A stretch of DNA of 64,000 nt, from NCBI GenBank assembly GCA_947455995.1, contig CANGQA010000005.1, positions 1,599 through 65,598 on the forward strand, given 5' to 3'. Position numbers and translations under genes: made by a program. The notes below the pieces were generated by a model that worked only from the letters and a program-made list of their open reading frames with translations, was not told the DNA's origin and ran no database searches. The DNA comes from Hyphomicrobiales bacterium. GTDB lineage: Bacteria; Pseudomonadota; Alphaproteobacteria; Rhizobiales; Beijerinckiaceae. Below, in pieces: positions 3,170-46,105 of the stretch (position 1 is its first letter; each line of letters begins with the position of its first letter).

Positions 3170-3246
3170 GTGGGGACGATCCTTGCGGCAAGAAGATAAT
3201 GATTGTTTTTCTTTTACTGCCATTAGAGATTGGAGCAAACAGGGAG

Positions 3247-8862: not shown

Positions 8863-9857
8863 CACATCCTGTTCTGGTCGAAGTGATGCGTGGCGATGTC
8901 GTAGAAAGCCGCCATCGAGGCTCTGTTCTGGTCGTCGATGGTGACGGCAAGGATGTTTTTGCCCGCGGGGATGTTGATGCCCCGATTTTTCCGCGCTCGG
9001 CAGTGAAGGCTATCCAGGCACTGCCGCTGTTTGAAAGCGGTGCGGTGGATCGTTTCGGCCTGACGGAGGCCGAAATTGCGCTGACGGTGTCCTCGCACTC
9101 TGGCGAGATGCTTCATGCGCAAACGTCCGCTTCAATTCTGCACAAGGCTGGCCAAACGTCCTCTTGCCTTGAATGTGGCGCGCAATGGCCGATGGGTGAG
9201 GCTGCTACGCGCGATCTTGCCGCGACCGGGGGCAAGCCCTCAGCGTTGCATAACAATTGTTCGGGCAAACATGCGGGCTTTATCTGTGTCGCATGCCATT
9301 TGGATACCGATCCTAAGAACTATGTCAAAGCCGACCATGAGGTGCAAAAACGCATCAAGATGGCACTCGGTGAAATGACTGGTGCGACTTTGGGCGATGA
9401 TGTTTGCGGCACCGATGGTTGCTCCATTCCAACCTATGCGATGCCTTTACGCGGACTTGCGACAGCATTCGCGCGGATCGGCACCGGGCATGGTCTGGAT
9501 TCCGGGCGCGCAAAAGCCTTTGCCCGGATGCGCAAGGCCGTGGCAGCGCATCCGTTTATGGTGGCCGGCACGGGCCGGTTCGATACCGAGGCGATGACGC
9601 TTCTGGGCAACAAGCTGTTTTGCAAAACAGGTGCCGAAGGGGTCTATTGCGCCTCTCTGCCCGAACAGGGGTTGGGGATTGCCCTGAAATGCGATGACGG
9701 CAACGGGCGCGGGGCACAGGTCATGATGGCCGCGCTGATCCAGAAATTCTTACCGATGTCGGACGCGCAAAAGCAGACTTTTGCACCCTTGCTGACACCG
9801 ACTTTGAAAAACTGGAACGGCATTACGGTCGGTTCGTTGCGGCCTGTCGGTTTCTGA
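8859..9857 (+). CDS. Asparaginase II family (Rhizobium-type L-asparaginase, PF06089-like) protein
   Basis: It has VVESRHRGS, PRSAVKAIQALPL, SHSGE and NNCSGKHAGF motifs. Its ATG overlaps the ligase stop (ATGA). Confidence 0.7.
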   Translation: MTHPVLVEVMRGDVVESRHRGSVLVVDGDGKDVFARGDVDAPIFPRSAVKAIQALPLFESGAVDRFGLTEAEIALTVSSHSGEMLHAQTSASILHKAGQTSSCLECGAQWPMGEAATRDLAATGGKPSALHNNCSGKHAGFICVACHLDTDPKNYVKADHEVQKRIKMALGEMTGATLGDDVCGTDGCSIPTYAMPLRGLATAFARIGTGHGLDSGRAKAFARMRKAVAAHPFMVAGTGRFDTEAMTLLGNKLFCKTGAEGVYCASLPEQGLGIALKCDDGNGRGAQVMMAALIQKFLPMSDAQKQTFAPLLTPTLKNWNGITVGSLRPVGF

Positions 9858-9908
9858 CCGGTTCTGGAATGCCTCCCCCCCCCATGGTGTCCAGAGGTGG
9901 GGGGGAGA

Positions 9909-30712: not shown

Positions 30713-31255
30713 ATGACCCAATCCATGGCGCAATCGACAATCGCTCCGCTTGACCAGGAGGAGTTGTGCCGACTTTACCGTGACAGCGAGGAGACGGTGG
30801 CCAGTCTGATGGCGCGTTCAGGCTTACGGGCGTCCGAATTCTATCAACTGTTGCGGGATCGTGGCTTGCCGCTCAGGCGTCCGCGCCGATCCAACCGCTC
30901 CGGCAATACAGCACCAGATCCTGAACGGCCCCGGAAGCCTGTGCGCAGGGAGGATCTGATTGCCCGCTTGTGGGAGGCGGCGTCAGGCCATATGGCGCAA
31001 ATTGAAACGCGGCTCGCGCGGCTCGATCAAGAGCAATCCAGCCACCCACCGGCGGCGGGAACCGAGAGTGAACTTCGTATCATGGGCCTGATTGTTAAAA
31101 CCCTGCGTGATCTGGCAGCCCTTGATGCGGATGTCGCGGGGGCGCGGAAGAAGGAGATGGTTCAAGATGACCTTGCCGCCGAACTGGCCACCTGCCCCGA
31201 AAGCATGCGCGCGGAACTGGCTCGACGTCTTGCTGGATTGCGCGAAGGCCGGTGA
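30713..31255 (+). CDS. GTA g1-position protein (putative small-terminase-like)
   Basis: 180 aa, immediately upstream of and overlapping TerL. The N-terminus looks HTH-like (LCRLYRDSEETVASLMARSGLRASEFYQLLRDRGL) and a helical region follows. The assignment rests on position only. The TTG at 30668 in the track spans the terminator hairpin and is rejected. Confidence 0.45.
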   Translation: MTQSMAQSTIAPLDQEELCRLYRDSEETVASLMARSGLRASEFYQLLRDRGLPLRRPRRSNRSGNTAPDPERPRKPVRREDLIARLWEAASGHMAQIETRLARLDQEQSSHPPAAGTESELRIMGLIVKTLRDLAALDADVAGARKKEMVQDDLAAELATCPESMRAELARRLAGLREGR

Positions 31256-32564
31256 GGAAAAACGGATTATTGCCTCTCTGAGCGAACGCGACATTGAATT
31301 CATGCTGGCGGACTGGATGAGTTGGGCGCGGCCTGACCAATGCCCACCTGCTCTATCGCAAACCGGATTGCCATGGACGGTCTGGTTGGTGCTGGGTGGA
31401 CGCGGGGCAGGCAAAACCCGCACAGGCGCAGAGTGGGTCCGCGGTATGGCTATCGGACTACCACCCTTTGCCGATCGCCCTGCCGGGCGTATTGCTTTGG
31501 TGGGGGAAACCCAGGCCGATGTCCGCGATGTGATGATCGAGGGAGTGTCGGGCCTGTTGTCTGTCCACAGACGGGACGAGCGGCCAGTCTGGCAGGCCTC
31601 GCGCCGAAGGCTTGAATGGCCTAACGGCACCATCGCACAGACTTTTTCCGCGGAAGACCCCGATAGTCTCCGCGGTCCGCAATTCGATGCTGCTTGGCTT
31701 GATGAATTGGGAAAATGGCGGCGTGCCGAAGAGACCTTCGACATGTTGCAATTCGGCTTGCGGCTGGGTGCCCAACCTCGTCAGACAGTGACAACGACGC
31801 CACGTCCGGTGCCTTTGTTGAAGCGGCTGATGGAAGATCCCGCAACAGCCATTTCCCGCGCGGCTACCCGTGCCAATGCCTTCCATCTGGCGCCATCATT
31901 TCTTGATGCCGTGGTCAAGCGCTATGCGGGAACGCGATTGGGCCGGCAAGAGCTGGAAGGCGAATGGCTGGATGAGCGCAATGATGCGCTGTGGACGCGC
32001 GCCGCATTGGAAATCTGCCGGATCGGGGTCGGAGACACGCCGCCACTTCAACGACTGGTGATCGCAATCGACCCGCCCGCCAGTTCGGGTCGGGATTCGG
32101 ATTCTTGCGGGCTGATCGTTGCGGGAATTGACGTCAACCGGACGGTCTATGTGCTCAATGATGCCACGCTGCCCCAAGCCCGCCCGCATGTCTGGGCAGG
32201 AAAGGCTGCTGCTCTTTATCGGGACTACGAGGCTGATGCCGTGGTGATTGAAACCAATCAGGGCGGCGAGATGGCCGAAGCGGTGTTGCGGGAAGCTGAT
32301 CCCGAATTAGCGGTGCTGCCGGTTCGTGCCACCAGAGGCAAGATGCTGAGGGCCGAACCTGTCGCGCTGCTTTACGAACAAGGACGAGTGAAACATGCAG
32401 GACTTTTCCGTGAGCTTGAAGATGAGATGTGCGATTTCGGCCCTAATCGGGAGGGTTGGGGTCTGTCGAACGGCCATTCGCCGGACCGGCTTGATGCTCT
32501 GGTCTGGGCTGTTACGGCTTTGGCCTTGGGCCCCAAAGCCACCCCACGCGTGAGACGGTTGTAA
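31167..32564 (+). CDS. GTA/phage terminase large subunit (g2-like)
   Basis: It has a Walker A motif (LVLGGRGAGKTRTGAEW), an N-terminal LSERDIEFMLADWMSWARPDQ typical of GTA TerL, and a C-terminal nuclease region. The start is uncertain (ATG 31167 or TTG 31230). It overlaps g1 in another frame. Confidence 0.9.
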   Translation: MTLPPNWPPAPKACARNWLDVLLDCAKAGEEKRIIASLSERDIEFMLADWMSWARPDQCPPALSQTGLPWTVWLVLGGRGAGKTRTGAEWVRGMAIGLPPFADRPAGRIALVGETQADVRDVMIEGVSGLLSVHRRDERPVWQASRRRLEWPNGTIAQTFSAEDPDSLRGPQFDAAWLDELGKWRRAEETFDMLQFGLRLGAQPRQTVTTTPRPVPLLKRLMEDPATAISRAATRANAFHLAPSFLDAVVKRYAGTRLGRQELEGEWLDERNDALWTRAALEICRIGVGDTPPLQRLVIAIDPPASSGRDSDSCGLIVAGIDVNRTVYVLNDATLPQARPHVWAGKAAALYRDYEADAVVIETNQGGEMAEAVLREADPELAVLPVRATRGKMLRAEPVALLYEQGRVKHAGLFRELEDEMCDFGPNREGWGLSNGHSPDRLDALVWAVTALALGPKATPRVRRL

Positions 32565-32609
32565 GGGCCACGCATCCCTCGGCCTCCCGCACTCCGACAC
32601 TGCAAGGAC

Positions 32610-33812
32610 ATGACCATGAGCACTTTTGTTGATCGCTGGTTGCGGCGGGCTTTTGCACGCCCCGATCACACCAAAACCTCCGCCACCGGACCGATGATGG
32701 CCCTCTACCAAACGGGGCGTCCGGTGTGGACACCCCGTGATTACGCGAGTTTGGCCAAAGAGGGCTTCCAGAGCAATCCGATCGTCTATCGAGCAGTCCG
32801 CATGATTGCGGAAGCCGCTGCTTCGGTGCCTTTTCTGCTCTATGATGGCCGTAAGGAATTGGTCGATCATCCTTTGATGCGGTTGATGACCACGCCCAAT
32901 CCGCGTGACAGTGGCACGGTGCTGCGCGAGGCCCTGATTGGCTACCTGCTGGTCTCGGGCAATGCCTATCTGGAAGCGGTTTGTGATGCAGGACAGGTGC
33001 GCGAGATCTATGCCTTGCGACCGGACCGAATGCGGGTGGTGCCAGGCGGGGATGGCTGGCCTGCCGCTTATGATTATCATGTCAACGGGCAATCTGTGCA
33101 GTTCGACCAGGATGCTGTGCCTGTTCCGCAAATCTTGCATCTGACCCTGTTCCATCCGCTCAATGATCATTATGGCCTGTCGCCGATGGAAGCGGCTGCG
33201 GCTTCTATCGACATTCATAATGCGGCGGGAGGATGGAACAAGGCACTGCTCGACAATGCGGCGCGACCGTCCGGTGCCTTGGTCTATGCCGGACCACCAG
33301 GGGCCACTTTGGGGGCCGAACAATTTGAACGTTTGAAAAATGAGCTGGAAGCCTCCTTTCAAGGCTCAGCCAATGCGGGGCGTCCTTTGCTGCTGGAAGG
33401 GGGGCTGGATTGGAAGCCGTTATCGCTTACCCCGAAGGATATGGATTTTATGGAGGCCAAATCGGCCGCTGCCCGTGACATCGCGTTGGCCTTCGGCATC
33501 CCTCCGATGCTGCTGGGTCTGCCAGGGGATAATACCTATGCCAACTATGCGGAAGCCAACCGGATTTTCTGGCGGCAGACCGTGATCCCGTTGTCCAGCC
33601 GGATTGCAACAAGCATCACGCATTGGCTTGCGCCTGTTTATGGGCATGTCACCTTGCAGCCGGATCTGGACCGGATCGATGCGCTGTCTCTTGAGCGTGA
33701 CGCCCTTTGGGCCCGCCTGGGCAAGGCCGACTTTCTGACTGATGACGAAAAACGGGAAGCGGTTGGCTACGGCCCTCTTCATGCTGCCGGAACCGTAAAA
33801 GGCCAGCCATGA
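32610..33812 (+). CDS. HK97-family portal protein (g3-like)
   Basis: 400 aa with NPIVYRAVRMIAEAAASVPFLLY and MEAKSAAARDIALAFGIPPMLLG motifs. An AAGGA Shine-Dalgarno precedes the start. Confidence 0.9.
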   Translation: MTMSTFVDRWLRRAFARPDHTKTSATGPMMALYQTGRPVWTPRDYASLAKEGFQSNPIVYRAVRMIAEAAASVPFLLYDGRKELVDHPLMRLMTTPNPRDSGTVLREALIGYLLVSGNAYLEAVCDAGQVREIYALRPDRMRVVPGGDGWPAAYDYHVNGQSVQFDQDAVPVPQILHLTLFHPLNDHYGLSPMEAAAASIDIHNAAGGWNKALLDNAARPSGALVYAGPPGATLGAEQFERLKNELEASFQGSANAGRPLLLEGGLDWKPLSLTPKDMDFMEAKSAAARDIALAFGIPPMLLGLPGDNTYANYAEANRIFWRQTVIPLSSRIATSITHWLAPVYGHVTLQPDLDRIDALSLERDALWARLGKADFLTDDEKREAVGYGPLHAAGTVKGQP

Positions 33813-33991
33813 ATGCCGGTCTGGATATGATTGTCGCACGCGGGGATTTGGCTGATCTAGCCCTGTTCCTGTGGGCGTCGGGAGCCTCGACAGCTCTGGC
33901 CGTCACTTTGCGCCAGCTTGGTGAGGCCAATCGCCGTTTTGATGAATTCATCCGGCAACTACACCACTTCAACAGCCATTGGGATGGCTGA
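33809..33991 (+). CDS. Small ORF coupled to portal (g3.5-position, one hydrophobic helix)
   Basis: 60 aa. Its ATG overlaps the portal stop (ATGA). It has one hydrophobic segment (LADLALFLWASGASTALAVTL). Confidence 0.45.
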   Translation: MNAGLDMIVARGDLADLALFLWASGASTALAVTLRQLGEANRRFDEFIRQLHHFNSHWDG

Positions 33992-34021
33992 CCTTAAAGC
34001 GTAAAACGGGAGATATCTGCC

Positions 34022-34228
34022 ATGCTTGACCGTTTGTCTGTCGATCTGCCCCAGCCGTCATTGGTGCCGGATGATCCTGCAGAAGCGAACGAAACCCTGA
34101 AGGTGCAGGCCCGGTTTTGGCAGCATCTTGTCCGCCTGACTGCTCCGGCCCGCCGCCTCCAGCAAATCCGCAAAGACTTTGCTGGCGGGCGTGAACCGCA
34201 GAACGCGTTGCGGGAGGGTTTGTTGTGA
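34022..34228 (+). CDS. Small ORF coupled to the prohead protease gene
   Basis: 68 aa. Its stop overlaps the GTG start of the protease (GTGA). I do not recognise the family. Confidence 0.4.
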   Translation: MLDRLSVDLPQPSLVPDDPAEANETLKVQARFWQHLVRLTAPARRLQQIRKDFAGGREPQNALREGLL

Positions 34229-34701
34229 TCGAACATCATCCCTCCAAGGCTGATGTACCGGTCGGTGAATTTGACGGTTATGCAAGCCTGTTCGGCCAGC
34301 CTGATCTGGGCCGTGATGTTGTTGCCAGCGGGGCCTTCGGTGAAAGCCTTGCCCGGCGCGGCGGTGCGGCTGGAATCAGGCTTTTGTGGCAGCATGATCC
34401 TTCCCAGCCCATCGGTGTCTGGACCGAGATACGGCAGGACCAGCACGGGCTCTATGTGCGCGGTGCGCTGAACCTGTCGGTCGCACGCGGGGGCGAATTG
34501 TTCGCGCTCTTGCAACAGGGCGCGTTGGGGGGGCTGTCAATCGGCTACCGCACCCAGAAGTCCTACGCGGATGCCCGCCACAGCGTGAGGATTTTAACCC
34601 GCATCGATCTTTGGGAAGTGTCGCTCGTGACATTTCCTTTACTGCCCTCGGCCCGTGTGTTGCGGGTTGCGGGATCCCCCTCGAACCGGAGACACTCATG
34701 A
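34225..34701 (+). CDS. HK97-family prohead protease (g4-like)
   Basis: It has FDGYASLFGQPDLGRDVVASGAF, LLWQHDPSQPIGVW and GLSIGY motifs. Confidence 0.85.
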   Translation: MIEHHPSKADVPVGEFDGYASLFGQPDLGRDVVASGAFGESLARRGGAAGIRLLWQHDPSQPIGVWTEIRQDQHGLYVRGALNLSVARGGELFALLQQGALGGLSIGYRTQKSYADARHSVRILTRIDLWEVSLVTFPLLPSARVLRVAGSPSNRRHS

Positions 34702-35987
34702 CAAGTTCCAATACTTCTGTGCAGTCCTCGTTGCTGCCCCCTGTTTTGCTGGCACCGGAAGTGAAGGCTTTTGACGCCGAACCCATTGATGCGCTCACCA
34801 CAGTCAATCGCCATTTCGAGGCCTTCAAGGACGGGAATGACCAGCGTCAGTCGCTGATCGACAAAGGCCGTTCGGTCGATGTTTTGATGGAAGAAAAACT
34901 GGCCCGTATGACCCATGCACTGGACGAGGCGCAAAGCAGATTGGAGAGCGCTTTACGTCAGCAACGCCGTCCGATGCTGGAGGGTGCCGAGCATGACTAT
35001 ACCAGCCCGCAACACCGCCACTATAAAAGTGCCTTCCACGATTACATGCGCTCTGGCGAAACATCCGGCCTGAAGGCACTCGAGCTCAAAGCGTTGTCCG
35101 CAGGCAGTCAGACCGATGGAGGCTATTTGGTAACACCGCCAGTCGAACGCGACATTCTCAAGCGTATGTCCGTGGCCTCACCGATCCGTTCGATTGCCAC
35201 AGTCCAGCAGATTTCAACCGCGACCTATCGCAAAGCCTATTCGACCACCGGGCCGGGAGCAGGATGGATCGGCGAAGTCGTGGCGCGCCCGCAAACCACC
35301 TCGCAGGTGATTGCCGATCTGAGTTTCCCGACCATGGAACTCTATGCCATGCCTGCAGCAACCCAGACTTTGCTGGATGATGCGGCGGTCAATGTCGAAC
35401 AGTGGATTGCCGATGAGGTGCAGGTTGTGTTTGCCGAGCAAGAAGGCGCAGCCTTCGTCAATGGTGATGGCACAACCAAGCCGCTCGGCTTTATGACACC
35501 GGCAAAAATTGCACAGGCCAACTGGAGCTGGGGCAAACTCGGCTATACCGTCACGGGGCTGTCGGCAGGCTTCACTGCCACCAATGGATCGGATGCGCTG
35601 ATTGATCTGATCTATTCGGTCAAGGCGGGCTATCGCCAGAGCGGACGTTTTGTGATGAACCGCAAGACGCAGGCGGCGATCCGCAAGCTCAAGGCCACAA
35701 CGGGCGAATATTTGTGGCAACCTCCGGCCATATTGGGCCAGCCTGCGACCTTGATGAATTTTCCGCTCGTCGAGGTCGAGGACATGCCCGATATTGCCGC
35801 CGATAGTTTTTCTGTTGCCTTCGGCAATTTCGCCCGCGCATATCTGATCGTCGACCGGATCGGTATCCGGGTGTTGCGTGATCCTTATTCCAACAAGCCC
35901 TATGTGATGTTCTACACCACCAAACGCGTGGGAGGTGGAGTGCAGGATTTCGATGCCATCAAACTGTTGAAATTCGGCACGGTCTGA
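34698..35987 (+). CDS. HK97-family major capsid protein (g5-like)
   Basis: The ATG at 34698 overlaps the protease stop (ATGA). It has an N-terminal scaffolding-like coiled coil, then DGGYLVTPPVERDI and GEYLWQPP motifs. Confidence 0.9.
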   Translation: MTSSNTSVQSSLLPPVLLAPEVKAFDAEPIDALTTVNRHFEAFKDGNDQRQSLIDKGRSVDVLMEEKLARMTHALDEAQSRLESALRQQRRPMLEGAEHDYTSPQHRHYKSAFHDYMRSGETSGLKALELKALSAGSQTDGGYLVTPPVERDILKRMSVASPIRSIATVQQISTATYRKAYSTTGPGAGWIGEVVARPQTTSQVIADLSFPTMELYAMPAATQTLLDDAAVNVEQWIADEVQVVFAEQEGAAFVNGDGTTKPLGFMTPAKIAQANWSWGKLGYTVTGLSAGFTATNGSDALIDLIYSVKAGYRQSGRFVMNRKTQAAIRKLKATTGEYLWQPPAILGQPATLMNFPLVEVEDMPDIAADSFSVAFGNFARAYLIVDRIGIRVLRDPYSNKPYVMFYTTKRVGGGVQDFDAIKLLKFGTV

Positions 35988-36008
35988 GGACCGATTTGAT
36001 GCGGCGCC

Positions 36009-36794
36009 TCACCGATTCAGGGTCTTGTCGATCCATGCACGCTGGGGTGCCAGCATGATACCTTGGGTCATGGCCCCGCAACGGGCTTGACCCTTGCCTT
36101 CGCTCCAGACCGTGATGGCTTGCAACACGCCGTCACGGTCGAAGATGCCGCCACCGGAATCGCCTGTGCAGGCACCCTGGTTGGCTTGTCCGGCGAGCCA
36201 AAGCAACAGCTTGCCCTGTCCGTAGGGCGTGACCACGGGGAGGGTGATCTGCCGCAAGGTGCCTGTGCTATCTGGCTGGGCCTCGCTCGACAGGCCGAAC
36301 CCTTGAATAGTCAAGCGTGTGTCTTTGGGGCTTGGAGGCTGACGGGATGGCGGCAGCTTGGCCGGTGCGAAACTGTCGGGCAAAATACGTTTCACCTGCA
36401 CAATCGCAAGGTCGATCGAACGGCTGCGCGCAGCAATGGCATCGCTGTGATAATCGGGATGGATGGTGATCCGTTTGGGCTCTTCCATGACAGGCTTGCC
36501 GTCAGCCCCGCGCCAATGCAAGCGGTAGGCAGACCCGCCTGTTACGCAATGGGCCGCTGTCAAAACGGAATCTGGTCCAATGACCACTCCGGAGCAGACC
36601 GAGCCGCGATCGGACAAGACCATCAGCATCGGATTTTCACCCGGGGGCACGCTCTGTCCACCGACAATGGCCCGAACCGGTGCGGTGGTGATCAGTATTG
36701 CGCCCAAGGCGAGCATGGCCAGATGGGCGATCATGATGCCGGAGCGTAAGGGATTCAGATCAATCAAGAGTGAAGACCTCTTTTTGAAAACCAT
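36009..36794 (-). CDS. Secreted trypsin-like serine protease (peptidase S1 family)
   Basis: The signal peptide ends ...APVRA, directly followed by IVGG. The catalytic triad contexts are LTAAHCV, IDLAIV and CTGDSGGGIF. It is antisense to the GTA genes. The start is 36794 (MVFKKR...) or 36734. Confidence 0.85.
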   Translation of the reverse strand: MVFKKRSSLLIDLNPLRSGIMIAHLAMLALGAILITTAPVRAIVGGQSVPPGENPMLMVLSDRGSVCSGVVIGPDSVLTAAHCVTGGSAYRLHWRGADGKPVMEEPKRITIHPDYHSDAIAARSRSIDLAIVQVKRILPDSFAPAKLPPSRQPPSPKDTRLTIQGFGLSSEAQPDSTGTLRQITLPVVTPYGQGKLLLWLAGQANQGACTGDSGGGIFDRDGVLQAITVWSEGKGQARCGAMTQGIMLAPQRAWIDKTLNR

Positions 36795-36825
36795 TTTTCT
36801 TTTCCACTCATCGGAGATTTTGCAG

Positions 36826-37386
36826 ATGATGTCCATGCAATTGATCGCGGAACCGCTTGTCGAGCCGGTGACATTGGACGAGGCGAAGCTGTTTTTGCGG
36901 ATCGACACCCTTGATGATGATGCGTTGTTGGCCAATCTGATCATGGCTAGCCGCCGCGTGATCGAACTCACAACCCGAACCTGTCTGCTGCAACAGACGT
37001 GGCGATTTGGGGTTGATCGTTGGCCGTCGAACACGTTGCTGCGCTTGCCATTGGCTCCACTTCAGTCTGTGTCCTCTGTGACTGTGATGGACGCAAGGGG
37101 CAATCGGCTTGCGCAAAATGTGCTCGATTTCCTGGCGAACCCAACCAGTGTGCCGCCCACTGTTATGGCCAAAACCGTCCCGCCTGTCAGTGCTGCTCGT
37201 GAGGGCGGTATCCAGGTCGATGCTGTGCTTGGTTATGGCAGCACCGCTGCATTGGTCCCTCAGCCTTTACGGATGGCGGTGTTGATGGTGCTGGCACAAT
37301 ATTATGAAACGCGGGGGCAGGGGGACGGCACACTGCCTGCGGCTGTGCGGACATTGATTGCACCGTTTACACGGAGGGCCTTATGA
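36826..37386 (+). CDS. Head-tail connector/adaptor (gp6-like, g6)
   Basis: The N-terminal signature EPVTLDEAKLFLRIDTLDDDALLANLIMASRRVIE identifies it. The stop overlaps the next start (ATGA). Confidence 0.8.
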   Translation: MMSMQLIAEPLVEPVTLDEAKLFLRIDTLDDDALLANLIMASRRVIELTTRTCLLQQTWRFGVDRWPSNTLLRLPLAPLQSVSSVTVMDARGNRLAQNVLDFLANPTSVPPTVMAKTVPPVSAAREGGIQVDAVLGYGSTAALVPQPLRMAVLMVLAQYYETRGQGDGTLPAAVRTLIAPFTRRAL

Positions 37387-37748
37387 GCACGCCCTTGCAT
37401 GACGCCGGTTTGCGGGCCCGTGACCCTGCATTGGCGGGCCGTCTGCGCGACCGCCTGAGTGTGGAAGTGCCTATTGATGTGCCCGATGGATATGGCGGGC
37501 TGACCCGAAGTTATCAGGTTAGCACCAAAGTCTGGGGGATGATTGTGCCTTATCAGATCAGGACAGGACGCGGGCCTGATCAGGACGGGCAGGTGATCAG
37601 CCATTTGGTTGTGATGCGCTGGCGCGGTGATATCGAAATCGGGATGCGGCTGCGCAAGGGTACACGCCTCTTGCGGATCTGCGAGTTGGCCGATGCCGAC
37701 GGACGGCGGATGCGGATGGTGTGTCTGTGCGAGGAGGATCACGCATGA
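37383..37748 (+). CDS. Head closure / head-tail joining protein (g7-like)
   Basis: 121 aa with LRDRLSVEVPIDVPDGYGGLTRSYQVSTKVWGMIVP, typical of the SPP1 gp16/HK97 gp8-type family. Confidence 0.75.
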   Translation: MSTPLHDAGLRARDPALAGRLRDRLSVEVPIDVPDGYGGLTRSYQVSTKVWGMIVPYQIRTGRGPDQDGQVISHLVVMRWRGDIEIGMRLRKGTRLLRICELADADGRRMRMVCLCEEDHA

Positions 37749-38182
37749 CTGTGACAGTCCCTATCATCACGGGTCCGGTCCTGGCTGTGCGCGAGAGGCT
37801 GCGTAATTTCTGGTTGGCCGATTCCGTGCTGCTCGGCTTGCTGGGTGGCGAGAAGATTTACGATACAGCCCCGCGTTCGGTCATTCCGCCTTATGTGACC
37901 TTTGGCAGCGTGACAGCCAGACAATGGCTCGGCGGCAGCCAGCGTGGTCATGAGCAGAATATCACGATTACTGTCTGGTCGCGCCAGATTTCGGACCGCG
38001 AAAGTCTTGAGATCGCAAGTCGGATGAGCCTGATCAGCGATGGCGCTTTGCTGTCTATGGCGGATTATCAGCTTTGGCCCTTGCAGGTGTTGAACCTTGA
38101 TTGTCCGCAAGGCACGCCGCAAGGTTTGCGGCAGACGGTCGTGGTCCTGCGGGCGCTGACTGCGCCAATCGCTAGAACCTAG
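37745..38182 (+). CDS. DUF3168 tail-completion/terminator-like protein (g8-like)
   Basis: It has the motif KIYDTAPRSVIPPYVTFGSVTARQW. The ATG overlaps the g7 stop. Confidence 0.7.
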   Translation: MTVTVPIITGPVLAVRERLRNFWLADSVLLGLLGGEKIYDTAPRSVIPPYVTFGSVTARQWLGGSQRGHEQNITITVWSRQISDRESLEIASRMSLISDGALLSMADYQLWPLQVLNLDCPQGTPQGLRQTVVVLRALTAPIART

Positions 38183-38484
38183 TAAAGCGGTATTTGCTGG
38201 AGCGCGGCATTGATGTCGGCGCGGGCCTGGCTCTGCTGGTTGGTCAGCATGACGAGAAACTCCTCGCTGGCTGGTTCAATACCGGTTTCGATCGCGAAGA
38301 TATTATGGCTGAGCGAGGTGTAGTAGGCGACAAGGCGGCGGAACACCGGATCACGGTGTTTAAGACGCGCAAAATTGGCGGCCTGATCCGCAAATTCCTC
38401 CTCGACTGAAAGCAGCACAGGGGAGACCACCAAACCCGGATCTTCGGGGTGCGATGGCGGCTCATCTGGATTGGGATCACTCAC
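38179..38484 (-). CDS. DUF465 (YdcH-like) small protein with an acidic/Pro-rich N-terminal extension
   Basis: FARLKHRDPVFRRLVAYYTSLSHNIFAIETGIEPASEEFLVMLTNQQSQARADI follows the DUF465 pattern (..HF.RL..eY......I...E....p.sde.l..LKk.rL.lKDEI). Its stop overlaps the g8 stop within CTAG. Confidence 0.65.
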   Translation of the reverse strand: MSDPNPDEPPSHPEDPGLVVSPVLLSVEEEFADQAANFARLKHRDPVFRRLVAYYTSLSHNIFAIETGIEPASEEFLVMLTNQQSQARADINAALQQIPLY

Positions 38485-38595
38485 AGCAACAACTCCTGAT
38501 TCATCGAGAATTCATAGCCCTAACCTGCATGTCCGACAACCGGACAGAATGGGCTTGGCAGCAGCAGCTTTTTGAAACGGTTATGGCGAGGATGC

Positions 38596-39255
38596 ATGAA
38601 TACGGATTTTCACGAAGTGGTTTTTCCGCTGGCCTTGTCGATGCAGGCCCGCGGCGGGCCGCAGCGGCATACAAACATCGTTACCACTGGCGCAGGTCGC
38701 GAGAACAGGATCAGCCGTTGGGCCTATTCACGATATCACTACGACATCGGCTCAGGAATAAAAACACGCGCTGATCTGGCGTTGCTGCTGAGCTTTTTTG
38801 AGGAACGGCGCGGGGCGTTTTACGGCTTCCGTTTCCGTGATCCGCTCGATCACTCCAGTGCGGAGCCGGATATGGCCGTGACGCCGTTCGATCAGCCGAT
38901 CGGGCAGGGTGATGGCACGCGTCTGGCGTTTCAACTGGTCAAAACCTATGGCGCTGCGTTTGCGCCTTATGCGCGACCTATTTTCAAGCCTGTTGCCGGA
39001 ACTCTCCGGCTTGCTGTGGCGGGAGTGGAGGTCGCACTGGGGCAAAATGCCGATTGTGATCCGCGCACGGGACTGGTGCGCTTTCGTTCGGGCCATTGTC
39101 CGGCGCCCGGGCAGACGGTAACCGCAGGTTTTGAATTCGATGTCCCCGTGCGTTTTGCCGATGATCGGCTGGAAGCAGCTCTCGATGCTTTCGGAAGCGG
39201 CGAGATCACCAAAATCAGTTTGATCGAATTGCTCTGCCAACCGGAAAAGGCATGA
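38596..39255 (+). CDS. GTA distal tail protein (DUF2460 / TIGR02217-like, g12)
   Basis: The hallmark N-terminus is MNTDFHEVVFPLALSMQARGGPQRHTNIVTTGAGRENRISRWAYSRYHYD. A GAGGA Shine-Dalgarno lies 6 nt upstream. Confidence 0.85.
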   Translation: MNTDFHEVVFPLALSMQARGGPQRHTNIVTTGAGRENRISRWAYSRYHYDIGSGIKTRADLALLLSFFEERRGAFYGFRFRDPLDHSSAEPDMAVTPFDQPIGQGDGTRLAFQLVKTYGAAFAPYARPIFKPVAGTLRLAVAGVEVALGQNADCDPRTGLVRFRSGHCPAPGQTVTAGFEFDVPVRFADDRLEAALDAFGSGEITKISLIELLCQPEKA

Positions 39256-39256
39256 G

Positions 39257-40138
39257 ATGATGCGTGATATTCCTCAAAGCCTGACGGGTGATGCCGCCAC
39301 CCATGCCTTGTGCTGGCGTGTCATGCGGCGCGATGGCGTGGTGCTGGGTTTTACCCAACATGATAAAGATTTGATATTCGGCGGGATAACGCATGAGGCG
39401 CGCAGCAGGCTGGATGTGGAGTCTGCACATCAGCTGGCGGGCTTTGCTGGCAGCGAAGCCGTATTGCTGGGTGCGCTTGTTTCTGAAAGTGTGACACAGG
39501 CCGATATAGTGGCAGGTCTGTATGACCATGCAACCATCGAGACATGGCTGGTCAATTGGAACGACCCAACCCAATGCGTCCTGCTCGATTGCGGATCGAT
39601 CGGATGGATCGAGTCTTCCGATCAGGGGTTCAAGGTCGAGGTGCGCTCCGTCGTTGACCAGTTGATGCAGCCACTGGGCCGTTTGTTCCAGGCCCATTGC
39701 TCGGCCGATTTGGGCGATAGCCGTTGCGGCATTGCTTTGAAGGGTCCGGGGTTTCGGCTTGAGGGCATCGTCCGCAATACCGATGGCCGCTCCATGCTGT
39801 CCATGGATTCGGGAGGCTTCGGCGCCGATGGGTTCAGCCGTGGCGTTTTGCACGTGCTTGATGGGGGCAATGCGGGCATGCGGGCGGATATCAAGACACA
39901 TGATGTCAACGGCGGTCAGGCGCAAATCAGTCTGTGGCAGGCCTTGCCTTTCATGCTTGGAGTCGGTGATCGCGTCGCTGCCATTGCAGGGTGTGACAAG
40001 ACCATCGGCACCTGCCAGACGCGCTTTGGCAATGCCGCTAATTTCCGTGGCTTTCCGCGTATGCCAGGCAATGATCTGTTGATCCGTCGGGTGAATGATG
40101 GCGAGGCGGGTATGGATGGCGGGAGTCTTTTCCAGTGA
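39257..40138 (+). CDS. GTA hub protein (DUF2163 plus phage BR0599-like C-terminus, g13)
   Basis: It has THALCWRVMRRDGVVLGFTQHDKDLIFGG and a C-terminal CDKTIGTCQTRFGNAANFRGFP. Confidence 0.85.
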   Translation: MMRDIPQSLTGDAATHALCWRVMRRDGVVLGFTQHDKDLIFGGITHEARSRLDVESAHQLAGFAGSEAVLLGALVSESVTQADIVAGLYDHATIETWLVNWNDPTQCVLLDCGSIGWIESSDQGFKVEVRSVVDQLMQPLGRLFQAHCSADLGDSRCGIALKGPGFRLEGIVRNTDGRSMLSMDSGGFGADGFSRGVLHVLDGGNAGMRADIKTHDVNGGQAQISLWQALPFMLGVGDRVAAIAGCDKTIGTCQTRFGNAANFRGFPRMPGNDLLIRRVNDGEAGMDGGSLFQ

Positions 40139-40596
40139 TCCCCTCCATGACAACGGACACCTTGGCCAAATGCGTGGTGGATGAGGCACGTCGATGGATT
40201 GGCACTCCCTATCTCCATCAGGCCTCGTTATGCGGGGTAGGTTGTGACTGCCTCGGTCTGGTGCGTGGTATCTGGCGGACCTTATATGGCGAAGAGCCCG
40301 AACCCTTGCCTCATTACAGTGCCGATTGGGCCGAGGCATCGGGCAGCGAACAGTTATTGCGAGCCGGACACAGGCATTTCATACCGGTTGCTATGGCGGA
40401 TATGGCAGCCGGAGATGTGGTGCTTTTCCGCTGGCGCGCCGGGTGTCCAGCCAAACACATGGGCGTGTTTTCTGGCGACGGCACCATGATCCATGCCCAT
40501 GCGGGTGCGTCCGTCGCAGAGGTGCATTTCGGTATCTGGGCACGCCGCATCGCACAGGTTTTTCGCTTTCCGACGCCAGATCAACGGGGTGAATGA
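40135..40596 (+). CDS. NlpC/P60 cell-wall peptidase (g14-like)
   Basis: It has WIGTPYLHQASLCGVGCDCLGLVRGIW (catalytic Cys) and GTMIHAH (His). Both ends overlap their neighbours. Confidence 0.85.
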   Translation: MIPSMTTDTLAKCVVDEARRWIGTPYLHQASLCGVGCDCLGLVRGIWRTLYGEEPEPLPHYSADWAEASGSEQLLRAGHRHFIPVAMADMAAGDVVLFRWRAGCPAKHMGVFSGDGTMIHAHAGASVAEVHFGIWARRIAQVFRFPTPDQRGE

Positions 40597-43500
40597 TGGG
40601 CACTTTGATCTTGAATGCTGCGCAAGGATCAGTGCGCGCCACAGCGGGTGGATTGATCGGTCATGGGGTCGGTTCCCTGCTGGGCGGTGGTCCGATTGGC
40701 TCGATGTTCGGACGTATCGCAGGGCAGGCATTTTCTGGTGCTTTGTCAGATCACCGGACCCGCTTGCATGATGGCCCGCGTCTGCATGATATGCCGGTGA
40801 TGGGGGCGACGGAGGGTGCGCCCATTCCCAAAGTCTATGGACGGGCCCGCATCGGGGGCACTTTGATCTGGGCAACCCGTTTTGCCGAAGTGATTACCCA
40901 GACTGAAACCGAAACAGGCTCGGGTGGAACGTCTGGCGGGCTTGGCTTTAAGGGCGGTGGCGGCGGGAGTTCCACCCTCAACCGGACCTATTCATATTAT
41001 GGCAATTTCGCCGTCGCCGTGTGCGAGGGCCCGGTGGCATTTATCAGGCGGATCTGGGCGGACGGCCAATTGCTCGACCATCAGGCCGTGACATTGCGCA
41101 TCTATCGCGGTGATGAAAGTCAGCAGCCAGATCCACTGATCGTGGCCAAGGAGGGAGCGGCCAATACGCCGGCCTTTCGCGGAACGTGTTATGTGGTTTT
41201 CGAGCGGATGCCGCTTGCCGCTTTCGGCAATCGTTTGCCGCAACTGAGTTTCGAGGTGGTGCGTCCGGTCAATGGTATCGGCCAAAAAATTCGCAGCATC
41301 AATCTGATTCCGGGATCGGGAGAATTTGTCTATGGCGTGACTGCCACCTCACGCGATTTTGGGCAGGGGAACAGCCAGTCCGAAAGCCGCCATGACCTGT
41401 CTGGAGCATCCGACTGGATGGTCTCGCTGGATGCATTGCAGGCATTGTGTCCCAATCTGCAGCATGTGCAACTGGTGGTGAGCTGGTTCGGCGATGATTT
41501 GCGGTGCGATAGCTGCACCGTCGCACCGCGTATCGAGATGGCCGGCAAAGCAACGATCGGTGCCCAATGGACGGTGGCAGGATTGGCGCGGGTGGGCGCA
41601 CGGACGGTCAGTCAAATCAATGGACGCGCGGCTTATGGAGGCACCCCGTCTGACCAGTCGGTCATGGAGGCGATAACCGATTTGCACCGTCGGGGGCTCG
41701 CGGTGACGCTTTATCCGTTTTTGATGATGGATATTCCACCCGACAACACGCTGCCCGATCCCTGGAGCGGAACCGATAGGCAGGCGGCCTATCCTTGGCG
41801 TGGGCGGATCAGCTGTGCACCTGCACCCGGTCAAGCCGGTTCGCCCGATGGAACTCTTGCGGCAGCCACGGCGGTCCAGAAATTTTTCGGCAATGCCACC
41901 GCTGCCCAATTCAGCTATCGCAACGGCGTGGTTTTTTCGGGCGGTGCGGAATGGTCGTGGCGCCGCATGGTCTTGCATTATGCAACGCTTGCCAAAGCAG
42001 CCGGAGGGGTCAACGGCTTCATTATCGGATCGGAATTTGTAACACTGAATCATATCCGCAGCGGCATAGGAACCTTTCCCGGGCCGATCGCTTTTGCCCG
42101 TCTGGCAAATGAGGTGCAATCCGTGCTGGGAACCGCAACGGTGCTGACCTATGCGGCTGACTGGACAGAATATGGCGGTTACAGCCCGGGCGCAGGCGAA
42201 TTGCGATTTCCGCTCGATGTGCTGTGGGCGCATCCGGCGATCGGGGCGGTGGGGATTGATGCCTATTGGCCCGTATCCGATTGGCGTGACGGCAACCAGC
42301 ACCGCGATTTAGCCCAAGCTGAAACCATCTATGATCCCGCCTATCTTTCGACTTGCATGATATCGGGTGAAAACTTTGACTGGTATTATGCCAGCCCTTC
42401 AGATCGGCAAGCCCAGTTGCGCACTCCCATCACTGATGGCCGCATCAACAAGCCATGGGTGTGGCGTGCAAAGGATATCCAGGGCTGGTGGTCCAATCAA
42501 CATTTCGAGCGCTTGAATGGCTCGGAATACGCTAATCCCACGCCGTGGCAGCCCTTCTCGAAACCGATCTGGATGACCGAAATAGGCTGTCCTGCGGTGG
42601 ACAAGGGAGCGAATGCCCCCAATGTCTTTCCCGATCCTAAATCCTCCGAGGCGGCTTTGCCGCCTTTTTCGCTCGGCGAGCGTGACGATGTCATGCTGTT
42701 GCGTTTTATCGAGTCTGTCTTGCTGGCTTTTGATCCGCACCAGGGCGCGGATGCCAGCCGTAATCCAACGTCGCCAGTCTATGGCGGGCGGATGATCGAC
42801 GCGGACCGCATCAGCTTTTGGGCCTGGGATACACGGCCGTTTCCGGCCTTTCCGATGATGGGCGATGTCTGGGCCGACAACGGCAATTGGCAAACCGGAC
42901 ATTGGTTGACAGGACGCCTTGAAAGCATCTCGCTCGATGGCCTGATGAAATCGATGCTGGATGATGCCGGTCTCAGTGTGGCTTTGACGGGGCGTATCGA
43001 CGAGGTGATCGATGGTTATGTCGCCGATCATCCGATGAGCGTGGCCGAGATGGTCGCTCCCTTATGTGATCTGCTTGATATCGAGGTGGCGGTAACGGGA
43101 GCGGGTCTGCGTCTGCTGGCATCAAAGCGCAAGCCAGTTGCACAACTGATGCGAGATGATTGTGTGGCCCTGCCCAACGGGGCATTGTTTGAACACCACC
43201 GCAAACGGGAAACAGGTTTACCGAGTGAATTGGCTTTGAGCTTTACTGAGTCTGAAGCTGATTATCGTCGTGCCGTAGTATCTTCCCGGCGGCTGACGGG
43301 TCGGGTTGGGCACAAGGCGCTGGCTGAATTTGCACTGGTGACACGCCGGTGCGAAGCCCAGCGTATGGCCGATACATGGTTGCATCGCCTTTGGACAAGC
43401 CGTGACGAAGTGACGTTTGCATTGACGCCGCGCTGGATCGGACTTGAGGTTGGTGATGTGGTCATGCTGCCGGTCACCGATCTGGCAGGGACCTTTGTCA

Positions 43501-44558
43501 TTACATCAATTCGTGAACAAGGCACGCGGCTGATCACAGCTCGTGCTATTGCCGATACGATCGGTAAAGCCCGGCCAGTTTCTATGCCCGCCCTTCATAT
43601 GAGCGCACCGAAACTGGCCAGTCGTCCATGGGTGGCGATTTTCGATTTGCCGATCACGATGGGATCACCGGTGGTGATGCAAGTGATTGCTGCCTTTGCC
43701 GATCCTTGGCCTGCAAGCCTAACAGTCTGGCGGTCTGCCGACGCGGTGTCCTATGATCCTGTTTTGACGCTGGATGCTCCTGCACGGCTCGGCAAGCTGC
43801 TCGGCGATTGCCCTGCTGGCCGTCTTTGGGTGTGGGATGAGTCCTGTTCTTTGACCATCGAGTTGCAAGGCGGGGTCTTGACCAGTCCGGGCGATCTCAA
43901 CGGATTGAGCGGTTCGCCCGCTCTGGCGATCGAGGGAGCAGACGGGACATGGGAGGTTATCAGCTTTGCACGGGCCGAATTGGTCGGACCCAAACAATGG
44001 CGGTTGAGCCGTTTGCTGCGCGGTCTGGGCGGGTCAGAACTTGCAGCGCAGCGCTTTGTCGCCGCCGGTGCACGTTGCGTTGTGCTCGACAGGGCGGTCA
44101 AGCCATTGCGGCAGGGGCTGTCTGCTTTAGGAGAGGTTTGGCATTGGCGTGTTGCGGCTTCGCATCTTGACTATTCCGACACGATGGCTGTGGCACTCGA
44201 TTCAACGGTCAGTGGAGCGGCTTTGATCCCTCTGTCTCCGGTGGGGCTGACCACCAAACGGACCCCGCAGGGCATTGTGCTGAACTGGATCAGGCGCGCA
44301 CGCTCGGATGCAGATGGATGGGGTGTGTCGGATATTCCGATGGATGAGGACGTCGAGGCCTATCAAGTCAGCATTATCAAACAAGGCCAGACCATCCGGC
44401 AGATGATGGTTTCGACCACCAGCTGCCTCTATGCCGCCACTGATGAATGGGCTGATTTCGGGCAGGCACAAAGCCGTCTCTGGGTCAGTATCAGGCAGAT
44501 CAGTTCAGCTGTCGGACCTGGTGCTGCGCTGACAGCACATGCGACTATCCTCTCGTAA
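40593..44558 (+). CDS. GTA host-specificity / baseplate megatron protein (g15-like)
   Basis: 1321 aa, a size and position that match RcGTA g15. It has an N-terminal Gly-rich segment, a central glycoside-hydrolase-like TIM region and a C-terminal phage-tail host-specificity-like region. Confidence 0.8.
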   Translation: MMGTLILNAAQGSVRATAGGLIGHGVGSLLGGGPIGSMFGRIAGQAFSGALSDHRTRLHDGPRLHDMPVMGATEGAPIPKVYGRARIGGTLIWATRFAEVITQTETETGSGGTSGGLGFKGGGGGSSTLNRTYSYYGNFAVAVCEGPVAFIRRIWADGQLLDHQAVTLRIYRGDESQQPDPLIVAKEGAANTPAFRGTCYVVFERMPLAAFGNRLPQLSFEVVRPVNGIGQKIRSINLIPGSGEFVYGVTATSRDFGQGNSQSESRHDLSGASDWMVSLDALQALCPNLQHVQLVVSWFGDDLRCDSCTVAPRIEMAGKATIGAQWTVAGLARVGARTVSQINGRAAYGGTPSDQSVMEAITDLHRRGLAVTLYPFLMMDIPPDNTLPDPWSGTDRQAAYPWRGRISCAPAPGQAGSPDGTLAAATAVQKFFGNATAAQFSYRNGVVFSGGAEWSWRRMVLHYATLAKAAGGVNGFIIGSEFVTLNHIRSGIGTFPGPIAFARLANEVQSVLGTATVLTYAADWTEYGGYSPGAGELRFPLDVLWAHPAIGAVGIDAYWPVSDWRDGNQHRDLAQAETIYDPAYLSTCMISGENFDWYYASPSDRQAQLRTPITDGRINKPWVWRAKDIQGWWSNQHFERLNGSEYANPTPWQPFSKPIWMTEIGCPAVDKGANAPNVFPDPKSSEAALPPFSLGERDDVMLLRFIESVLLAFDPHQGADASRNPTSPVYGGRMIDADRISFWAWDTRPFPAFPMMGDVWADNGNWQTGHWLTGRLESISLDGLMKSMLDDAGLSVALTGRIDEVIDGYVADHPMSVAEMVAPLCDLLDIEVAVTGAGLRLLASKRKPVAQLMRDDCVALPNGALFEHHRKRETGLPSELALSFTESEADYRRAVVSSRRLTGRVGHKALAEFALVTRRCEAQRMADTWLHRLWTSRDEVTFALTPRWIGLEVGDVVMLPVTDLAGTFVITSIREQGTRLITARAIADTIGKARPVSMPALHMSAPKLASRPWVAIFDLPITMGSPVVMQVIAAFADPWPASLTVWRSADAVSYDPVLTLDAPARLGKLLGDCPAGRLWVWDESCSLTIELQGGVLTSPGDLNGLSGSPALAIEGADGTWEVISFARAELVGPKQWRLSRLLRGLGGSELAAQRFVAAGARCVVLDRAVKPLRQGLSALGEVWHWRVAASHLDYSDTMAVALDSTVSGAALIPLSPVGLTTKRTPQGIVLNWIRRARSDADGWGVSDIPMDEDVEAYQVSIIKQGQTIRQMMVSTTSCLYAATDEWADFGQAQSRLWVSIRQISSAVGPGAALTAHATILS

Positions 44559-44586
44559 CACGACTTTTTATAGAAGGATCAATCCT

Positions 44587-45732
44587 ATGGCGCAAACGGC
44601 TCGGCTCGGTCTGGCACTGATGGCAGCAGCGCAGGCACAAAAACATGTGACCCATAATGATGCATTGCTGTCGCTCGATGCGCTTGTTCAGGCGGTGGTG
44701 CTGGAAACGGACCGTCTGTCTCCACCGGCCGTGCCGCAAGAGGGCGATGCTTATCTGATCGGCACATCGCCCACAGGTGCATTTGCAGGGCAGTCCGGCA
44801 TGCTGGCAGCTTACCTGACAGGAAGTTGGCGGTTCTTTCAGCCACAAACGGGTTGGCTGGTTTTTGCCAAAAGCCGCAATGCGCTGATGGTGCTGAGTGG
44901 TGGCAGCTGGCATGTGCTGGATGATCTGGCCCAAAGCTTTGCCAATCTCAAAAGTCTTGGCATCGGAACCAGTGCGGATTCGACCAACCGGCTTGCAGTC
45001 AAAACCAATGCCGCCTTGTTCGTAGCCACCAGTGCAACCGAGGGCGGCAGTGGTGATTTACGGGTGGTGTTCAACAAGCCCTTGCCTACGGGGACTGTCT
45101 CGCATCTTTTCCAGTCCAACTGGTCCGGGCGAACCGAATTGGGGCTGACCGGGGATGACCAGTTCCATATCAAAGTCTCGCCCGATGGCAGCTCATGGAC
45201 CGAGGCACTGGTTTGCTCCCCCGCCAATGGCACGGTGCGGATGGATAGAGTGCTGACAGGCCGCGCGACGCCTCGTGTGACCGCTTGCTACGAGGCTGAA
45301 TTTTCAGGGGCAAGCAAGCTGGGTATCGCGCTCAATGACAGCGGTGCCGCGGCATCCACAGCCATCAGCTTTAGTCGCTCGGGTGTGCTGATCGGTTCGG
45401 TCGGTTTGGCAACTGCCGGTGTCAGTTTTAACACCACATCGGATTATCGCCTCAAGACGGCAATCAAGCCGCTATCATGTGCCGTCAATCGGCTCAAACA
45501 GCTCAGAGCACTGCGCTACGAATTTATCTCCCAACAGGGGCATGAGCTTGATGGATTTTTGGCGCATGAGGTTGCAGATGTGGTTCCAGAAGCGGTGACA
45601 GGAACCAAAGACGGTATCGACGAGCAAGGTCTTCCGGTATGGCAGCAACTCGACCAGACCCGCTTGATCCCTTTGCTGGTCGCAGCTTTGCAGGAGGTGC
45701 TGATCCGCCTTGAAACTCTCGAAACCCATTGA
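44587..45732 (+). CDS. DUF2793-type tail fibre with a C-terminal peptidase S74 intramolecular-chaperone domain
   Basis: The N-terminus is TARLGLALMAAAQAQKHVTHNDALLSLDALVQ...GDAYLIG. The C-terminus, SDYRLKTAIKPL..AVNRLKQLRALRYEF...GFLAHEVADVVPEAV...LIPLLVAALQEV, matches the autocleaving chaperone module. Confidence 0.7.
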   Translation: MAQTARLGLALMAAAQAQKHVTHNDALLSLDALVQAVVLETDRLSPPAVPQEGDAYLIGTSPTGAFAGQSGMLAAYLTGSWRFFQPQTGWLVFAKSRNALMVLSGGSWHVLDDLAQSFANLKSLGIGTSADSTNRLAVKTNAALFVATSATEGGSGDLRVVFNKPLPTGTVSHLFQSNWSGRTELGLTGDDQFHIKVSPDGSSWTEALVCSPANGTVRMDRVLTGRATPRVTACYEAEFSGASKLGIALNDSGAAASTAISFSRSGVLIGSVGLATAGVSFNTTSDYRLKTAIKPLSCAVNRLKQLRALRYEFISQQGHELDGFLAHEVADVVPEAVTGTKDGIDEQGLPVWQQLDQTRLIPLLVAALQEVLIRLETLETH

Positions 45733-45781: not shown

Positions 45782-46105
45782 ATGAAAACAGCATTCTCAT
45801 CATTGATTTTCATTATCGCCATGCTGGCACTGGCCGGCACGGGCGTTTATGCTGCAAGCAACGGGGCAGGACGTTCCTGTTTGTCGGCCCCCGATGTGCG
45901 TGAACTGGTCGACAAGGCAGAGGTGGTTCCCGCCGCCCGCGCCATTTATACCGCAAGAACGGCGGTTTTCGGCGAAGCCGTCAAGGTACGCTTGTGCAAA
46001 CAGGATGGGGCGTTTGTTTATCTGGTAACGATACTGGCAAAAGATGGAAAAATCAGGGTAGTTGAAGTCGATGGCCGTTCCGGCACTTTGATCGAGCGGC
46101 ATTGA
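45782..46105 (+). CDS. PepSY-domain periplasmic protein
   Basis: It has a signal peptide (MKTAFSSLIFIIAMLALAGTGVYA) and a PepSY-like C-terminus (YLVTILAKDGKIRVVEVDGRSGTLI). Confidence 0.65.
   Translation: MKTAFSSLIFIIAMLALAGTGVYAASNGAGRSCLSAPDVRELVDKAEVVPAARAIYTARTAVFGEAVKVRLCKQDGAFVYLVTILAKDGKIRVVEVDGRSGTLIERH

Follow-up and report, generated by a model that had tools for sequence, protein, structure and literature searches.

Locus organisation

The stretch analysed here, 64,000 nucleotides of contig CANGQA010000005.1 from a Hyphomicrobiales bacterium (assembly GCA_947455995.1), is referred to below as the window. It has a G+C content of 56% and carries on its forward strand a head-tail cluster of the type known from RcGTA, the gene transfer agent (GTA) of Rhodobacter capsulatus. 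The cluster extends from 30713 to 45732, including a DUF2793 gene at its 3' end, and would look complete except that g9, g10, g10.1 and g11 are missing from it. The head module (terminase, portal, protease and capsid), the neck (g6-g8) and the baseplate (g12-g15, with the GTA_TIM domain) that mark an RcGTA-like cluster are all present (Table 1). The locus is also chromosomal, vertically inherited and under purifying selection, and it is not a recent prophage, its flanks being kept in five species. What it lacks is the tail tube g9 (PF06199 / TP901-1-type), the chaperones g10 and g10.1 (PF11836, PF09550) and the tape measure g11: none of the tube, tape-measure and chaperone genes expected of a siphovirus-type long tail is encoded with the baseplate genes.

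The two genes that border the gap are readily recognised. A profile of the window g8 and its relatives matches the RcGTA tail terminator Rcc01690 (6TBA) with an E-value of 4e-15, and for g12 the match is Rcc01695, the RcGTA distal tail protein of solved structure, with an E-value of 3e-55. The TAG stop of g8 lies at 38180-38182 and g12 starts at 38596, with a single gene between them, a reverse-strand open reading frame (ORF) of 101 codons that we call orf101. Its stop, CTA on the forward strand, occupies 38179-38181, and the two stops together read CTAG. An earlier, sequence-only reading of the window had described just this layout; our coordinates and family matches agree with it, and the shared tetranucleotide can be read directly in the sequence. 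The same reading took the retained genes to be full length and translationally coupled, as indeed they are, with 4-nt overlaps at g6/g7, g7/g8, g13/g14 and g14/g15 and 1 nt between g12 and g13.

It had further claimed that g9-g11 were gone without a forward remnant, which the searches confirm. Queries with g9, g10, g10.1 and g11 from two relatives with intact clusters gave no tblastn match in the window. Hidden Markov models (HMMs) of the same four genes, each built from 62-75 alphaproteobacterial sequences and run with filters off against all six frames of the 64 kb, returned best E-values of 0.6-4, which is noise. Two forward ORFs, at 38194-38409 and 38454-38774, lie in or over the interval; neither has a family match or a match to the g9-g11 HMMs, and a divergent tube or tape-measure ORF hidden in 38179-38595 was rejected on these grounds. 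Both the tblastn and the HMM searches for g9-g11 were negative also in the corresponding loci (about 12-20 kb) of four sister species described below. The module is absent from the window locus, and no remnant of it is left.

Table 1. Cluster features in window coordinates; the last row gives DUF465 genes of intact clusters in the coordinates of their own loci
Feature	Position	Strand	Evidence and remarks
g1-position ORF, 180 aa, upstream of terminase	30713..31255	+	no Pfam match; called as gene in L003, L004, L006; dN/dS 0.22 vs L008
g2, large terminase	31167..32564	+	PF03237, PF17289; dN/dS 0.03-0.05
g3, portal	32616..33812	+	PF04860, E 4e-89
two small ORFs	between g3 and g4		
g4, prohead protease	34225..34701	+	PF04586
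g5, major capsid protein	34698..35987	+	PF05065, E 3e-86
trypsin-like serine protease, passenger gene between g5 and g6	36009..36767	-	PF00089
g6, head-tail adaptor	36826..37386	+	PF05135
g7, head completion / stopper	37383..37748	+	PF05521
g8, tail terminator, left edge of deletion	37745..38182	+	PF11367, E 4e-11
orf101, divergent DUF465/YdcH-like, right edge of deletion	38179..38484	-	101 aa, GTG start
divergent spacer orf101/g12	38485..38595	.	ribosome-binding sites of both genes, palindrome
g12, distal tail protein	38596..39255	+	PF09343/DUF2460, E 6e-76; starts ATG, MNTDFHEVVFP...
g13, baseplate hub	39257..40138	+	PF09931, PF09356
g14, NlpC/P60 cell-wall peptidase	40135..40596	+	PF00877
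g15, megatron	40593..44558	+	PF13547 GTA_TIM E 4e-126, PF13550, PF23666
DUF2793 / S74 chaperone-domain protein, fibre- or spike-like, cluster 3' end	44587..45732	+	PF10983, PF13884; dN/dS 0.06-0.09
DUF465 in intact clusters	L040 9684-9926; L087 9580-9816; L103 7507-7743; L193 9573-9809	-	

Distribution of the arrangement

The exact g12 protein of the window occurs on 15 contigs, six of which were retrieved, from different ENA samples plus one NCBI metagenome-assembled genome (MAG; GCA_947449815.1). These six independent assemblies align to the window over 15-20 kb without a single gap, at 99.35-100% identity, and have the same junction; the window is identical to contig k141_1713731 of ENA sample ERZ27263692.

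Scanning species-representative genomes with g12 yielded 80 loci. Two of them, from lake MAGs of the Hyphomicrobiales/Rhizobiales with 89% identity in g12 (L007 and L008), have the same g8-orf101(-)-g12 order. About 70 of the other 78 have g9-g11 between g8 and g12, and in a few more the upstream part is cut by a contig end and the module is seen only in part. In L050, g12 lies at the contig edge; in L055 and L067 the region is divergent, phage-like and includes a long tape measure, and L084 has divergent copies of g9-g11 that the HMMs detect. Counting all sources, g9-g11 stand between g8 and g12 in more than 140 other alphaproteobacterial loci.

When orf101 was used to search for homologues, only seven protein clusters came back (66-97% identity), all of them from the clade of the window, and they led to two further species (L098/L099 and L100/L101) in which the gene order and the overlapping stops are identical. 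The layout is thus the same in L007, L008, L098/L099 and L100/L101, at a mutual synonymous divergence (dS) of 0.3-1.1, and the flanks are shared too: DUF1491 and CxxCxxCC genes upstream; a response regulator, a histidine kinase and a 17-kDa antigen gene downstream. Because layout and flanks are identical and the loci are negative with the g9-g11 HMMs in all of them, the g8-orf101-g12 arrangement is fixed in at least five species of an uncultured freshwater Hyphomicrobiales clade.

Three observations stand beside this distribution. Sample ERZ27263692 holds two species with the tube-less cluster, represented by the window contig and by L098 (k141_335946), together with another organism whose cluster is intact but otherwise built alike (L111, k141_813654). 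On one short contig from the Joint Genome Institute (JGI), L138, g10 is followed directly by g12, with neither g10.1 nor g11 (745-1591); on another, L136, it is followed by a g15 fragment (1070-1633). Each of the latter two could be a real variant or a chimeric assembly.

Breakpoints and the DUF465 gene

The sequence-only reading labelled orf101 as DUF465/YdcH-like and stressed that it sits exactly at the junction. The label holds on profile evidence. The window protein itself has no match to PF04325 in Pfam even at E ≤ 10; it falls below the gathering threshold of that family (25 bits), as do its orthologues in L008 (22.9 bits) and L007 (19.8 bits). However, a profile of 14 PF04325-positive proteins encoded at the same position in intact clusters finds orf101 with an E-value of 2.3e-12 and its clade orthologues with 1e-11 to 1e-13, tblastn gives E-values of 1e-6 to 1e-3, and the JGI orthologue P0129 is tagged PF04325. 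By profile similarity, then, we classify orf101 as a divergent DUF465 protein whose N-terminal extension, acidic and rich in proline, is specific to the clade. Its AGGAG ribosome-binding site is conserved in a five-species alignment, and its ratio of non-synonymous to synonymous substitution rates (dN/dS) is 0.16-0.25.

The gene neither marks nor caused the junction. Intact clusters often have a reverse-strand DUF465 ORF of 76-82 aa between g11 and g12 (PF04325, E 1e-14 to 1e-18), whose stop lies 1-10 nt from that of g11. We find it in roughly 15-20% of the fetched loci, across several Hyphomicrobiales families: in Methylocystaceae (L040), Beijerinckiaceae (L035), Xanthobacteraceae (L015), Microvirga (L024-26), Salinarimonas (L049, L060, L061, L080), Blastochloris (L028), Pleomorphomonas (L048) and lake organisms (L087-97, L103, L193), together with eight JGI loci. 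In the g11/g12 spacer DUF465 is ancestral, and its presence at the junction is not the result of an insertion. Since it already abuts the g11 stop in intact clusters, the convergent layout with zero spacer has been inherited and was not made by the deletion. The literature, which was searched for DUF465 and not for the trypsin-like protease, gave no paper connecting DUF465 to GTAs; we also found none about Hyphomicrobiales clusters that lack a tail, or about what DUF465 does.

The alignment of the junction with intact relatives, which the sequence-only reading had proposed, places the breakpoints just after the g8 stop and just after the g11 stop. The native C-terminus of g8 is retained (...LRALT... 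aligns with ...LRAVTE... in an outgroup), and so is that of orf101. In intact relatives g9 starts 1-16 nt past the g8 stop, and the spacing of the DUF465 and g11 stops is equally tight. Native ends on both sides and tight spacing in the relatives argue for one precise event: as judged from the alignment, it took about 1.6 kb, from the g9 start through the g11 stop, and essentially nothing else. What we see is a precise deletion or relocation of g9-g11 beside a gene that was already present.

A scan of 35900-38800 for promoters and terminators gave nothing above chance, the orf101/g12 spacer included, in line with the earlier statement that the g8/orf101 junction has no terminator. The spacer is identical in four strains. 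It contains a palindrome (TGTCCG-ACAAC-CGGACA, 38530-38546), possibly an operator or a small hairpin. In L007 and L098 changes in one arm are matched by compensatory changes in the other, but in L008 and L100 a 4-nt deletion disrupts it.

Selection on the retained genes

We calculated dN/dS by the method of Nei and Gojobori for the window against L008, L007, L098 and L100 and among those species. Every retained GTA gene has a dN/dS of 0.03-0.24 at dS values of 0.3-1.1 (g8, 0.13-0.19; g12, 0.08-0.11; g13, 0.11-0.19; g15, 0.09-0.13). These values are similar to those of the flanking housekeeping genes, and no higher than those of intact Microvirga, Salinarimonas and Methylocystis pairs, where g8 has 0.15-0.39 and g12 has 0.10-0.23. 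Three other strains of the window species differ at 88 codons with synonymous and 56 with non-synonymous polymorphisms, and none has an internal stop. Low dN/dS across the clade excludes decay and indicates that the retained genes are in use.

Where the missing functions may be encoded

The RcGTA tail is a stack of hexamer rings of one fold, namely the stopper, the terminator, five tube discs and the distal tail protein. The distal face of the terminator binds the tube, a long loop of the tube binds the distal tail protein, and a trimer of the tape measure fills the channel and probably helps to retain the DNA (PMC7296036). Because the terminator and the distal tail protein both contact the tube, g8 and g12 are the genes whose products would be the direct partners of what is missing. 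The strong constraint on g8 suggests that it still caps something, and the only known role of g8 is the capping of a tube (PMC7296036).

The nearest outgroup of the clade is a MAG (JBJTDR01, L010) that has g9, g10 and g10.1 at their usual site, the last of them overlapping g12. Its g11 is gone from the canonical site (8935-10020 region) and lies at 2754-3335, between the terminase g2 and the portal g3. An independent contig of the same species (JGI Ga0209358_10001990, L113; 99% identity in g9) is also without g11 between g10.1 and g12 (228-2728). In this part of the tree, tail-assembly genes have demonstrably been moved and yet retained.

The explanation that we prefer, though only tentatively, and the most economical one, is that the head-tail cluster has been split and that genes at another chromosomal locus provide the tube, chaperones and tape measure. 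Under it, the ancestor shared by the five or more species would have lost g9, g10, g10.1 and g11 from this site in one precise event of about 1.6 kb, which brought g8 against the reverse-strand DUF465 gene already present between g11 and g12. The cluster would still build a particle, the missing functions being supplied from the second locus, and transcription from g8 would read through the reverse-strand orf101 into g12-g15, which is plausible given the lack of a predicted terminator where g8 meets orf101. We favour a split because L010 provides a precedent and because the RcGTA genome itself is known to be spread over five loci, with incomplete clusters elsewhere suggested to be split (PMC5721377).

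Two sets of results weigh against this explanation. First, we infer a relocation whose product we do not see: the searches covered the 64-kb window and the sister loci, and no g9-g11 of the clade was found there. A homologue search with the g9 of L010 gave 6635 matches, the top 120 of them all at about 65-74% identity. Seven g9 homologues (P0010, P0008, P0005, P0006, P0021) and g11 homologues (P0211, P0205), chosen for their similarity to those of L010, were placed and all lie in intact clusters of other organisms, and the search with the g11 of L010 gave no sister-like match. Scanning JGI metagenomes with a g9 alignment listed at least 80 loci, which belong to ordinary clusters; the absence of an orphan g9-g11 block among those listed is a weak negative. 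Second, mere relocation of g9-g11 does not predict the change of rate seen in part of the cluster. We compared the protein distances of the clade and of L010 to 6-15 common outgroups, with bootstrap intervals on the clade/L010 ratio. This ratio is 0.99-1.04 for g2, g3, g4, g5 and g14, and rises to 1.22 for g6, 1.27 for g7, 1.35 for g8, 1.25 for g12, 1.29 for g13 and 1.17 for g15, with intervals that mostly exclude 1. In the g12 protein, 15 changes are fixed in the clade at positions that the outgroups conserve, and there is a clade-specific C-terminal extension of 5-6 residues (LLCQPEKA). Something altered the evolution of neck, tail and baseplate, but not that of the head, on the stem of the clade, and constraint was restored afterwards.

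Such acceleration is one of the reasons for considering a particle that has no tube at all, in which the g8 terminator ring would dock directly on a g12 ring bearing hub, peptidase, megatron and fibre, giving a stub tail. The loss comprises precisely the genes that give a tail its length, and no others. Neck, tail and baseplate accelerated specifically in this lineage, with the changes and extension of g12 among them, and the head did not; and an orphan g9-g11 block is missing from the loci listed. The stopper, terminator, tube and distal tail protein of RcGTA have a common fold and stack as hexamer rings, and particles of RcGTA devoid of the tape measure have been seen (PMC7296036); in Caulobacter, no tail is visible on the GTA particles in transmission electron microscopy (PMC9632790). 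Nevertheless, we regard a tube-less particle as unlikely. Genes other than g8 and g12 accelerated as well, and not finding the missing genes is weak evidence when the searches covered the window and the sister loci. Moreover, we know of no siphovirus-type tail that assembles without tape measure and tube, which counts against a particle of this kind. In RcGTA, too, the tape measure is thought to help to hold the DNA in the head (PMC7296036).

Alternatively, the ancestral genes could have been replaced by non-orthologous tube, chaperone and tape-measure genes, for example from a prophage, at another locus. This would explain how purifying selection on g8 and g12 goes together with accelerated, co-adaptive change at the tail interfaces, and also why searches seeded with GTA-type g9 and g11 gave nothing that could be assigned to the clade. 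However, the 64-kb window contains no candidate gene and there is no direct evidence of any kind, which makes replacement improbable in our view.

That the cluster is a defective relic, and the deletion one step in its erosion, is very improbable. Incomplete clusters with pseudogenes do occur in other alphaproteobacteria (PMC5721377), and L136 and L138 have other deletions in the tail region. Yet all 14 of the 14 retained genes are full length, without frameshifts or stops, in five species and four strains, and over dS values up to about 1 neutral decay would have destroyed genes that instead keep a dN/dS of 0.03-0.24; the doubt that the sequence-only reading cast on simple decay was justified. 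A mis-join in assembly or binning that dropped 1.6 kb, which that reading had named as a possible refutation, can be dismissed even though the window comes from short-read metagenome assemblies, since six independent assemblies, made from different samples and with two assemblers, are colinear without gaps and four further species share the junction in diverged sequence.

Comparison with known clusters

The head-tail cluster of a GTA is regarded as an operon that can hardly be divided, and where one is "incomplete" the usual verdict is decay or a limit of detection. The window cluster resembles that of RcGTA (g1-g15; Bardy et al., 2020; PMC7296036) in having the same families in the same order for g2-g8 and g12-g15, at a chromosomal site with conserved flanks. 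It differs in lacking g9, g10, g10.1 and g11, in having reverse-strand trypsin-like and DUF465 genes, and in the fibre-like DUF2793 gene at its 3' end. The likeness to intact Hyphomicrobiales clusters is closer still (L090, GCA_945877775.1 CAMDVU010000001.1; L103; L193; L040): these have g2-g5, the reverse trypsin-like gene, g6-g8, then the reverse DUF465 gene, g12-g15 and DUF2793, the 3' end of DUF465 being 1-10 nt from the stop of the forward gene upstream of it. Unlike the window, they keep g9-g10-g10.1-g11 between g8 and DUF465, and their DUF465 proteins have 78-80 aa, compared with 100-113 aa and a Pro/Asp/Glu-rich N-terminal extension in the window clade.

With the L010/L113 lineage the window shares a rearranged tail-assembly region in which g11 is off its canonical site and all other genes are kept. 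In contrast to the window, that lineage keeps g9, g10 and g10.1 in place and g11 inside the cluster, and has no DUF465 gene in the locus. The window is also comparable to the incomplete "large clusters" of Shakya et al. (2017; PMC5721377) and to the GTA of Caulobacter crescentus (PMC9632790), which are RcGTA-like with components missing. For the incomplete clusters, split genomes, replaced parts or a changed function have already been proposed (PMC5721377). The Caulobacter GTA still encodes a tube, unlike the window locus, and the window differs from the incomplete clusters in that one specific four-gene module is missing across several species and the selection on the rest has been quantified.

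Incomplete RcGTA-like clusters and the idea of a split cluster are therefore already in the literature (PMC5721377). New here are the clean loss of a whole module, fixed across a clade, the quantified selection on the remainder and the intermediate state in a sister lineage, as well as the recognition of the DUF465 and trypsin-like genes as long-standing reverse-strand residents of Hyphomicrobiales GTA clusters. If the missing genes are elsewhere in the chromosome, the clade offers a clean case of a structural operon that was divided while under selection, its sister lineage showing an intermediate step. If instead the tube has truly been lost, a long-tailed architecture would be convertible to a tube-less one, and the minimal neck-baseplate set for DNA delivery would have been identified. 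A siphovirus-derived particle would then have turned stub-tailed and been maintained by selection across the whole freshwater Hyphomicrobiales clade.

Other genes of the cluster

Between the DUF2793 gene and the response regulator lies a forward ORF of 107 aa (45782-46105) with a signal-like hydrophobic segment at its N-terminus. It has no family match, occurs in all species of the clade and has a dN/dS of 0.24-0.36.

The trypsin-like gene between g5 and g6 is found at the same position in many Hyphomicrobiales GTA clusters (L010, L024, L049, L087, L103, L111, L193 and others). Together with DUF465 it makes two reverse-strand host-type genes that are kept inside many of these clusters. The protease gene has a dN/dS of 0.13-0.17 in the window clade, that of a gene under purifying selection.

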